Shown in pieces: positions 4,350 to 4,423 of a stretch of 5,224 nt of DNA. The stretch is taken from the IMG/VR virus record IMGVR_UViG_3300029476_000065; one strand, written 5' to 3'. The position numbers were made by a program, and so were the translations under genes. Source of the DNA: a virus (lineage: Duplodnaviria > Heunggongvirae > Uroviricota > Caudoviricetes). A model generated the notes under the pieces. The model searched no databases. It was not told the DNA's origin and was given only the letters and a program-made list of their open reading frames with translations. How positions within the stretch are numbered: position 1 is the first letter of the stretch; each line of letters starts with the position of its first letter.

Positions 4350-4423
4350 GGTAAGGGTACTTCGTAGGGATTCGAACCCTCTGCCAAGCACGGCGATCTC
4401 CGACGTCGCAAAATACCCTTACC
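4350..4423 (-). other. tRNA-like remnant: canonical T arm (GGGTTCGAATCCC on the minus strand) enclosed by a perfect 10-bp inverted repeat; no complete cloverleaf
   Basis: GGTAAGGGTA at 4350-4359 is the reverse complement of TACCCTTACC at 4414-4423 (54-bp spacer). The spacer contains an exact T-stem-loop, but no acceptor/CCA arrangement can be built. Confidence 0.35.

Follow-up and report, generated by a model that had tools for sequence, protein, structure and literature searches.

RNase III needs about two helical turns of double-stranded RNA, and an irregular helix of 19–21 base pairs (bp) within an untranslated polycistronic RNA is its classic substrate. The sites in the early RNA of phage T7 and the precursor of DicF are targets of this enzyme. 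Phage T4 species 1 and 2 RNAs and the RtT RNAs of Escherichia coli are small non-tRNA RNAs that share a transcript with tRNAs, are cut from this common precursor, and carry features resembling the 3' half of a tRNA. The locus analysed here is located in a 5,224-nucleotide (nt) stretch of DNA, hereafter the window, from the tailed-phage record IMGVR_UViG_3300029476_000065 of the IMG/VR database. It is an inverted repeat surrounding a tRNA T arm on the minus strand, immediately past a tRNA-Thr gene. The element is a conserved 87-base RNA hairpin adjoining tRNA genes and enclosing a candidate mimic of the tRNA elbow. The frame formed by its inverted repeat is conserved throughout a widespread family of hairpin cassettes, and the tRNA-like part is one among many inserts that can be exchanged within it.

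The sequences GGTAAGGGTA at 4350–4359 and TACCCTTACC at 4414–4423 bracket the minus-strand sequence GGGTTCGAATCCC. On the plus strand, ggtaagggta (4350–4359) is followed by gggattcgaaccc (4367–4379) and tacccttacc (4414–4423), and on the minus strand GGUAAGGGUA is separated by 54 nt from UACCCUUACC. The two 10-bp arms are complementary without a mismatch and measure 74 nt from end to end. The initial annotation of the locus had reported this repeat with correct coordinates, letters, and 54-nt spacing. It had also correctly placed the repeat 8 nt (4424–4431) past the 3' end of tRNA-Thr, which is called by ARAGORN at 4432–4507 on the minus strand. By chance, approximately 0.75 perfect 10-bp inverted repeats with arms no more than about 150 nt apart are expected per window (5224 × 150 / 4^10), and therefore the repeat alone is little proof of a structure. 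The helix is judged to be real because of its longer arms, the 15 + 6 bp RNA helix, the folding z-score, and the covariation in relatives. An inverted-repeat search of the window lengthens the arms from 10 to 13 nt, and the main RNA helix reaches 15 bp including two U·G pairs. An outer 6-bp helix of CACAAC (4430–4425) and GUUGUG (4349–4344) continues the stem beyond one bulged A. The 74-nt core has a folding energy of −31.6 kcal/mol with a z-score of −4.1, and none of the 200 shuffled sequences is as stable. The sequence 3' of the 3' arm of the cassette is GUUGUGAUGAAG.

The insert contains the T hairpin AGGG-UUCGAAU-CCCU (minus strand, 4380–4366), which has a UUCRANN loop closed by a G-C pair. 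The initial annotation described it as a textbook T arm, which holds for the loop and the four Watson–Crick pairs of the stem but not for the fifth position, which is G·A. By contrast, its statement that no D arm can be placed is superseded by a GG-containing hairpin with a 4-bp stem and a 9-nt loop at 4409–4393. It was right that the element lacks an anticodon arm and a CCA end: a variable linker of 12 nt lies between the hairpins, and the element has no 7-bp acceptor with a discriminator, its terminal helix being 15 + 6 bp.

The structure is real and belongs to the RNA of the minus strand, which is also the tRNA strand. Pairs were counted in 111 distinct cassettes anchored on their sequence ends, which makes these counts independent of the fitting of alignment A4, which is model-based and comprises 31 T-arm-type sequences and relatives. 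Stem positions 7–13 are paired in more than 90% of the 111 cassettes, by several types of pairs. The ratio of G·U pairs to A·C mismatches, which are what G·U pairs of the opposite strand would look like, is 156:40. In alignment A4, which leans toward the structure because it was fitted to it, 93.5% of cells contain a standard pair compared with 85.7% in shuffles. Pairs changed on both sides number 15 as opposed to 5.6 in shuffles, with none of the 500 shuffles reaching 15, and they affect 10 of the 21 stem pairs. Sliding the pairing partners by 1–3 columns reduces the pairing to 37–58%. A MAFFT alignment of the T-arm inserts, A1, shifts the T-loop of the L054 type by one column, and A4 and loop-anchored counts were used in its place. 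The compensatory changes together with the excess of G·U pairs argue for a structure in the RNA of the tRNA strand. Both arms of the frame are equally conserved.

Judged from the variation among related sequences, the T hairpin is under selection and the D-like hairpin is nearly invariant. None of the 16 columns of the T hairpin vary among the A and B variants, and its stem is 100% paired. One of the 16 columns of the D-like hairpin varies among 13 variants, and the change, C to U, adds a pair. The linker, by contrast, varies in 7 of 13 columns. Taken together, 1 of the 32 columns of the two hairpins is variable compared with 20 of 56 elsewhere (Fisher p = 5e-4). P1-type variants (BUCT554, L024, L064, L168, L199, and others) differ from the window at 7–10 of 30 stem positions and 3–5 of 13 linker positions but at only 0–1 of the 32 hairpin positions. 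Two of the four pairs of the T stem covary across insert families (AU/GC and GC/CG/AU). The stem reads GC GC GC AU in the P1 type, GC GC CG GC in the L054 type, and GC AU GC AU CG GC in the L010 type; in L172 it is CAAGG/CCUUG, read by eye, since the automated anchor was misplaced in that row. All T-hairpin insert types retain the loop UUCGAnU and the G-C pair that closes it. Compensatory changes of the T stem between unrelated insert families indicate selection on an RNA hairpin rather than a relic. The motif G-UUCRANN-C occurs in 5 of 46 insert families, whereas 0.19 are expected from shuffles, an approximately 25-fold enrichment. The L054 type has a counterpart of the D-like hairpin, GCAU-AUCUGGGAA-AUGC, with 4 bp, a 9-nt loop containing GG, and two compensatory pairs, as well as a 13-nt linker similar in sequence to that of the P1 type, both in a manual register. 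The P1-type insert is also found between differing neighbours and within another frame, CCCAC-C-AAUGAGAGCACUG ... CAGUGCUCUCAUU-C-GUGGG (L094, L017). A fold that includes the T hairpin is optimal or within 0–2.7 kcal/mol of the optimum, the difference being approximately 1 kcal/mol for the window copy. In the reading favoured below, the P1-type insert would mimic the elbow of a tRNA without a decoding or acceptor function.

A member of the cassette family is defined by the frame CACAAC-A-GGWAAG ... CTTWCC-GUUGUG, a stem of 13–15 bp, and an insert of 40–60 nt on the transcribed strand. The window copy matches the frame, is recognized by the covariance model R1 at 4344–4430 of the minus strand with 108 bits, and shares the stem covariation observed over the 111 cassettes. 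The variants CAUAAC, CGCAAC, and UGCAAC of the outer helix still pair with GUUGUG through G·U. BLAST of positions 4210–4431 finds P1-like phages and 479 plasmids that match over the full length. For P7 and Ro157c2 the alignment ends at approximately 4361, within the element, and the frame CACAAC-GGTAAGrGCA ... TGCyCTTACC-TGTTGTG surrounds an unrelated core without a T arm. A third, different core occupies the orthologous frame of the Klebsiella phage record KPC53, and RCS47 carries a P7-type and a P1-type cassette in tandem. The inverted repeat is thus conserved as a frame in relatives, a point on which the initial annotation had staked its interpretation. Enterobacter phage BUCT554 (Uetakevirus) has the T-arm core, too, 86% identical and with a stem that has changed in a compensatory manner. 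The frame pattern alone matched more than 120 IMG/VR contigs, and after addition of a second scan the matches represent 111 distinct cassettes, which fall into 46 unrelated insert families.

Carriers of the cassette include P1-like, lambda-like, Uetakevirus, and Sashavirus genomes and the KPC53 record. Cassettes lie in untranslated leaders directly past terminators. That of phage lambda is at 44,787–44,862, 6 nt past the tR' terminator of the 6S transcript, and that of Sashavirus is located in the structural operon. The M3 RNA of phi80 was rejected as a homologue: it is an annotated homologue of oop and is encoded elsewhere, and no cassette follows the late terminator of phi80. In a survey of one genome per species, cassettes with a paired stem were restricted to genera of the Enterobacterales. 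The spread of the family over unrelated types of phages with a common host order points to a host factor or to horizontal spread. The lambda cassette also recurs, in approximately 25 exact copies, on contigs that are short or poorly covered and that belong to unrelated taxa (Pseudomonas, Psychrobacter, Oceanobacillus, Enterococcus, Kitasatospora, and others; the loci include L233, L235, L245, L250, L254, L263, and L264); these copies outside the Enterobacterales are evidently contamination of assemblies with lambda DNA. The DLP12 prophage of E. coli K-12 has no cassette; Qin and Rac were outside this check. In several lambdoid contigs (L012 7031–7183, L078 3038–3193, L086 9654–9806) the cassette abuts tRNA-Arg(UCU), and flanks of these contigs recur upstream of other cassettes. 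The last GUG of the frame provides the first three bases of the acceptor of this tRNA, so that the outer helix and the acceptor stem are mutually exclusive. A literature search with strings of the frame sequence and for tRNA-like RNAs of lambdoid prophages gave no relevant description, and the cassette family has apparently not been described so far.

The window is 94.5% identical to Escherichia phage D6 across 97% of its length, and positions 2644–5165 match the ban-operon leader of phages P1 and P7 at 91–93%; by this similarity, it is part of a P1/D6-like phage-plasmid. The corresponding region of P1 is the leader of the C1-controlled ban operon. The order of the P1/P7 leader, along the minus strand of the window, is a dicF-like region, tRNA-Asn and tRNA-Thr, approximately 730 bp, tciA/tciB/tciC, tRNA-Ile2, and ban. 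The element is on the same strand as the tRNAs, within the untranslated leader ahead of tciA/tciB. All five tRNAs called in the window by ARAGORN are on the minus strand, including tRNA-Tyr (4512–4598) and tRNA-Asn (4604–4678), which continue the array from tRNA-Thr. The tRNA-Tyr between tRNA-Thr and tRNA-Asn is absent from D6, and phage Ro157c2YLVW has the same arrangement as the window. In the reference sequence of D6 (NC_050154, 4321–6087), tRNA-Ser, -Thr, and -Asn are annotated on the strand opposite to the ARAGORN calls, and a tRNA with the anticodon CAU is omitted. The tRNA-Ser(UGA) of P7, at 2739–2825 of the analysed P7 locus, is unannotated.

The reading that we favour, with a probability of about 0.45, is that the frame is an RNase III-type processing stem from which a small mimic of the tRNA elbow is released; we infer the cleavage, the release, the stability of the product, and its binding partner. 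The cassette would be transcribed together with the genes of tRNA-Asn, tRNA-Tyr, and tRNA-Thr in the long untranslated leader before tciA/tciB. The basal helix of approximately 21 bp, CACAAC-A-GGUAAG... / ...CUUACC-GUUGUG, would constitute a double-stranded RNA processing site, for which host RNase III is the obvious candidate. Cleavage would excise the cassette from the polycistronic precursor, so that tRNA-Thr would be freed on its 3' side and the next module on its 5' side. The insert would be liberated as a small, compact, tRNA-like RNA, which readers of the elbow (RNase P, TruB, TrmA, and similar host proteins) could bind. The helix has the dimensions of an RNase III site, with 6 + 15 bp and one bulged A, and is situated in an untranslated leader of tRNAs and small RNAs. 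The N leader of lambda is predicted to fold as an analogous closed module with a GGUGUGUG/CACACACC base, GU-rich/CA-rich, and its hairpin is a known RNase III site. The predicted global fold of the lambda late leader does not include the cassette stem, and it has no helix as long as the potential 19-bp stem of the cassette. The title of Daniels et al. 1988 (reference 49 in PMC7547250) refers to RNase III processing sites in the lambda late transcript. Of the possibilities raised in the initial annotation, a tRNA-mimic processing signal comes closest to this reading, but the tRNA-like part is one insert of a larger cassette family. Its observation is confirmed and its interpretation is partly supported.

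Several results speak against the release of an elbow mimic by RNase III. The D-like stem overlaps an alternative GCC/GGY mini-helix (GCC/GGC in the window), which is also supported by variants. In the minimum-free-energy fold of the window copy, UCGGA from the D-like loop is instead paired with UUCGA from the T-loop; an elbow contact would use the same complementarity. The overlap with the mini-helix and the loop–loop pairing make the elbow fold only a candidate. The apparent covariation of the D-like stem depends on a manual register and comes from two insert families. Most insert families contain no T-loop, so that tRNA mimicry does not define the family. The conservation of the frame could reflect recent recombinational spread rather than recognition by a nuclease. 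Finally, knock-down of P1 by CRISPR interference across plp, upl, and trnT caused no plating defect, and plp was scored as non-essential.

It is very improbable that the element is a decayed tRNA gene or the scar of a tRNA-derived attachment site, both of which had been considered in the initial annotation. The perfect T arm beside tRNA genes and the end-to-end span of 74 nt covered by the 10-bp arms would fit such an origin, but ARAGORN calls no tRNA at the element while calling five elsewhere in the window, and the Rfam tRNA model (gathering threshold 29 bits) has no match to E = 10, also when 4335–4435 is searched alone. The cassette was unmatched in Rfam scans of the whole window, the 101-nt region, and 15 related loci; the best scores, driven by the T arm, are 14.2 bits for mascRNA against a threshold of 42.5 and 6 for a T-arm fragment of transfer-messenger RNA (tmRNA) against 47, and the Rfam 15 scans contain no match to Y RNA or YrlA. 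The best local alignment to 88 distinct phage tRNAs, a set that leaves host chromosomal tRNAs outside the comparison, covers the T arm only and scores 27, equal to the mean of 27.0 for a null in which the T core was kept and the rest shuffled. Recent decay would have left intact tRNAs at orthologous loci, but none is found inside the frame in P7, Ro157c2, KPC53, or RCS47, which hold other inserts. A decayed tRNA is ruled against by these results, and an attachment scar by the lack of tRNA similarity past the T arm together with the single matching place in each of the P1 and D6 records. Neither origin accounts for hairpins that are nearly invariant and a T stem that covaries across families. 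The explanation of lowest probability is that the element is part of the coding sequence of a lipoprotein, plp, on the plus strand. The element of P1 falls within this annotated open reading frame (2852–3229 in the analysed P1 locus), which is also annotated in RCS47 and JL22, and the window has a 96-amino-acid plus-strand frame at 4171–4461. The product, however, has no Pfam or NCBIfam match, the reading frame of P1 runs 30 nt into trnT, P7 and RCS47 have unrelated inserts in place of its 3' part, it is not annotated in D6 and P7, and the variation compensates an RNA helix on the opposite strand. Hence plp is probably a mis-annotation and not a gene. In P1, plp and upl (2660–2851 in the analysed P1 locus) overlie the array of structured RNA modules on the opposite strand. 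An intrinsic terminator was rejected as well, since no U-run follows the 3' arm, and neither a promoter nor a terminator is predicted at 4344–4430.

The remaining alternatives concern the role of the frame. It may be a recombination linker, a DNA-level homology handle by which phages in a co-infection exchange short modules, with the inserts being neutral filler, some of which contains tRNA fragments from neighbouring tRNA genes. The occurrence of the same insert between differing neighbours, the differing inserts at orthologous positions of P1, P7, RCS47, and KPC53 with the tandem pair in RCS47, the break of BLAST matches inside the element at approximately 4361, and the recurrence of CACAAC/GUUGUG at many module junctions are all consistent with such a handle. 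Neutral filler, however, would not be expected to show the strand-specific 156:40 excess of G·U over A·C, compensatory changes in the main stem and T stem, near-invariant D-like and T hairpins beside a varying linker and stem, or the enrichment of T-loops, and we consider a linker of this kind distinctly unlikely as the full explanation. A recombination handle and an RNA stem are compatible, and the frame may serve both. An RNase P-type mimic, in which RNase P (or RNase Z/BN) would read the T/D elbow and the stem and cut at a measured distance from the T-loop, thereby setting RNA ends in the tRNA array in the manner of the P1/P7 C4 RNA precursor or eukaryotic mascRNA, is similarly unlikely. 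The canonical T-loop closed by G-C, the D-like loop with GG, and the position directly past a tRNA agree with it, as does mascRNA being the top, though insignificant, Rfam match; furthermore, the C4 antisense RNA of P1/P7 is counted among the tRNA-like non-tRNA substrates of RNase P (PMC2190699). Against it, RCCA is not conserved, and the CC that follows a possible 7-bp acceptor in the P1 type is missing in B-type variants. The helix far exceeds a 12-bp acceptor/T stack, the T stem is separated from the main stem by an unpaired A and a G·A, and most family members are without a T-loop. A role in transcription elongation, either as a boxA for NusB/NusE or through stable hairpins that shield the leader from Rho, is a little less likely again. 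The consensus 3' arm contains the putative boxA, UGCUCUUU, and a U·U mismatch at position 3 is retained in 84 of the 111 cassettes, which indicates that the sequence is kept at the expense of a pair; the location of cassettes in untranslated leaders right after terminators and the pair of hairpins at the H-19B nutR site (PMC3526286) point in the same direction. The window and P1 copies nevertheless read UACCCUUA with a compensating change in the other arm, from which it follows that the pairing, and not boxA, is kept here. A boxA, GCUCUUU(A), must be single-stranded, but the motif is buried in a stable stem of 13–15 bp, the arms are equally conserved, and P1 is not known to have an N protein. 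With its base-paired UACCCUUA, this copy leaves the boxA/nut reading a minor alternative.

The processing stem may also be viewed on a broader scale. The cassettes might form a plug-in system of temperate phages of the Enterobacterales, in which a conserved processing hairpin frames dozens of unrelated, individually conserved inserts. These would be reshuffled among P1-like, lambda-like, P22/epsilon15-like, and other phages and released in quantity from early or late leaders. Several of them, the present one included, would mimic the tRNA elbow and could decoy or recruit tRNA-binding enzymes of the host or tRNA-directed immune nucleases, as RNA 'morons' in an arms race. This proposal is conceivable but unlikely.

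Table 1. Positions of the parts of the cassette and of neighbouring modules in the window
Feature	Position	Strand	Remarks
Whole cassette	4344–4430	−	87-nt RNA: outer helix, bulged A, 15-bp stem, 44-nt insert; R1 108 bits
Outer helix, 5' strand CACAAC	4425–4430	−	Bulged A is 4424; 1 nt (4431) from the CCA end of tRNA-Thr
Main stem, 5' arm GGUAAGGGUAUUUUG	4409–4423	−	Contains the earlier 10-nt arm 4414–4423
D-like hairpin GCGA-CGUCGGAGA-UCGC	4393–4409	−	4-bp stem, 9-nt loop with GG
Linker CGUGCUUGGCAG	4381–4392	−	12 nt, variable, where the anticodon arm would be
T hairpin AGGG-UUCGAAU-CCCU	4366–4380	−	T-loop 4370–4376
Main stem, 3' arm CGAAGUACCCUUACC	4350–4364	−	Contains the earlier arm 4350–4359; A at 4365 unpaired
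Outer helix, 3' strand GUUGUG	4344–4349	−	Alternative partner CACAAC at 4292–4297, closing the next module
Companion module M2, hairpin CCAGA-AGAUAAGCA-UCUGG	4292–4343	−	Usually 3' of the cassette
Apparent second cassette, 23-nt arms	4108–4207	−	Frame resemblance by eye

Framed modules and tRNAs appear to alternate along the leader. The minus-strand segment 4108–4207 has 23-nt arms that are 91% complementary and the frame CACUACAAC-GUUGAGAACACUGG ... CCAGUGUUCUCAAC-AUUGUGGUG, and its sequence looks like that of a second cassette with an unrelated insert. Model R1 does not match this segment, so that its membership in the family rests on the resemblance of the frame as judged by eye. The initial annotation had remarked that the two inverted repeats share a spacer of 54 bp, but this equality depends on where the arms are cut: arms of 13 nt leave 48 nt, and in the register of the family the inserts are approximately 44 and 54 nt long.

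Further matches of R1 in the window are located at 2598–2645, 3778–3889, and 4876–4958. The first is a minus-strand mini-cassette of 48 nt (32.6 bits) with the exact frame CACAAC-A-GGAAAAGGCG ... CGCCGUUUCC-GUUGUG, positioned approximately 185 nt downstream of tRNA-Ile2(CAU); its apical hairpin was flagged by a terminator scan. The match at 3778–3889, also on the minus strand and directly past tRNA-Ser, is a framed hairpin, UGCAAC-G-UUAAGAGUAUUUGG ... CCAAGUGCUCUUACC-AUUGCG, which encloses AAUUAAGCGAAUaCCGGAAGCAGAACCGGAUCACCAAAUGCGUACAGGCGUCAUCGCCGCCCAGC; this sequence closely resembles the lambda late leader immediately 3' of the lambda cassette. The 83-nt hairpin at 4876–4958 has a stem of approximately 20 bp and the frame CGUAAC-A-GGUAAGGGCGCUG ... 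CAGCGCCCUUGCC-U-GUUAUG. Its polarity is opposite to that of the other cassettes: the energy of the plus strand is −43.0 kcal/mol, with U·G and G·U pairs, compared with −38.4 kcal/mol for the tRNA strand, which has C·A and A·C mismatches.

A second architecture, consisting of a GUGGUGAAUGCG(C/G).. hairpin, a CCGG/CCAGG hairpin, and CACCAC, occurs at 3661–3781 and 3982–4116 of the minus strand. The former segment matches the Rfam family STnc100 below threshold (39.4 bits compared with 47). In many lambdoid contigs this architecture trails cassettes, and its slot is sometimes taken by a real tRNA or a large tRNA-like RNA. The companion module M2 (4292–4343; ... GCAACCAGAAGAUAAGCAUCUGG ...) is conserved in Sashavirus, P22-like phages, and KPC53, and has counterparts in L128 (approximately 3000–3060) and L129 (approximately 3010–3070). 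In Salmonella phage SPN9CC, M2 directly precedes the start codon of the N antiterminator gene. At 5145–5162 of the minus strand, upstream of the tRNA array and near the end of the P1 match, there is a strong terminator-like hairpin with the sequence GCCCAUCUUCGGGUGGGC and UUUUUU behind it. A terminated short RNA and hairpin modules at this place resemble the 6S/tR' arrangement of lambda.

If the favoured reading is true, the ban-operon leader of P1, where plp is annotated, and the late leader of lambda past tR' carry overlooked members of one family, in which a fixed stem is combined with at least 46 alternative inserts. The family would provide a catalogue of candidate small RNAs of phages, including several independent mimics of the tRNA elbow. 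It would also account for the cutting of tRNA and small-RNA arrays of phage leaders into units and for the mosaicism of this neighbourhood. Annotation is also corrected in that plp is probably not a gene, and the D6 reference has tRNAs on the wrong strand and one that was missed.

The cassette shares a lambdoid prophage-type neighbourhood with STnc100/PasD, PasA/PasC, StxS, and IsrJ, and a match to IsrJ is found beside the cassette in L022. PasA/PasC have been linked to TerB genes, and PasA is matured by cleavage (preprint 10.64898/2026.05.13.724894). These RNAs bind Hfq and end in intrinsic terminators, unlike the cassette, which has no U-tract, terminator, or Rfam match. The consensus 3' arm UGCUCUUU followed by a spacer and a small hairpin resembles the boxA-spacer-boxB order of lambdoid nut sites, including nutR of H-19B; however, the window copy has UACCCUUA, the motif is paired, and cassettes are present in Q-dependent late leaders and in P1, where an N protein is not known to act. 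With the tRNA-like domain of tmRNA, the Y RNA YrlA, the precursor of P1/P7 C4, and eukaryotic mascRNA the cassette has in common a canonical T-loop, a partner loop with GG, a long terminal helix, and the lack of a functional anticodon arm. It has no CCA, and no Rfam model of these RNA families matches it. The arm order of YrlA is permuted, whereas that of the cassette is D then T, as in a tRNA. C4 provides a precedent in P1 for a tRNA-like substrate of RNase P, but is encoded at a different locus (PMC2190699). T4 species 1 and 2 RNAs and the E. coli tRNA-linked repeats with RtT have no sequence relationship to the cassette (the Rfam scans gave no match to RtT) and no hairpin frame, but the cassette is like them in being a putative small non-tRNA RNA in a tRNA operon. 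The RNase III stem-loops of phage leaders, as in lambda N, the lambda late transcript, T7 early RNA, and the DicF precursor of the dicB operon, have not been described as a family of a frame with inserts. Like those sites, the cassette, for which we infer cleavage, has an irregular helix of approximately 20 bp that flanks a structured segment inside an untranslated polycistronic phage transcript.

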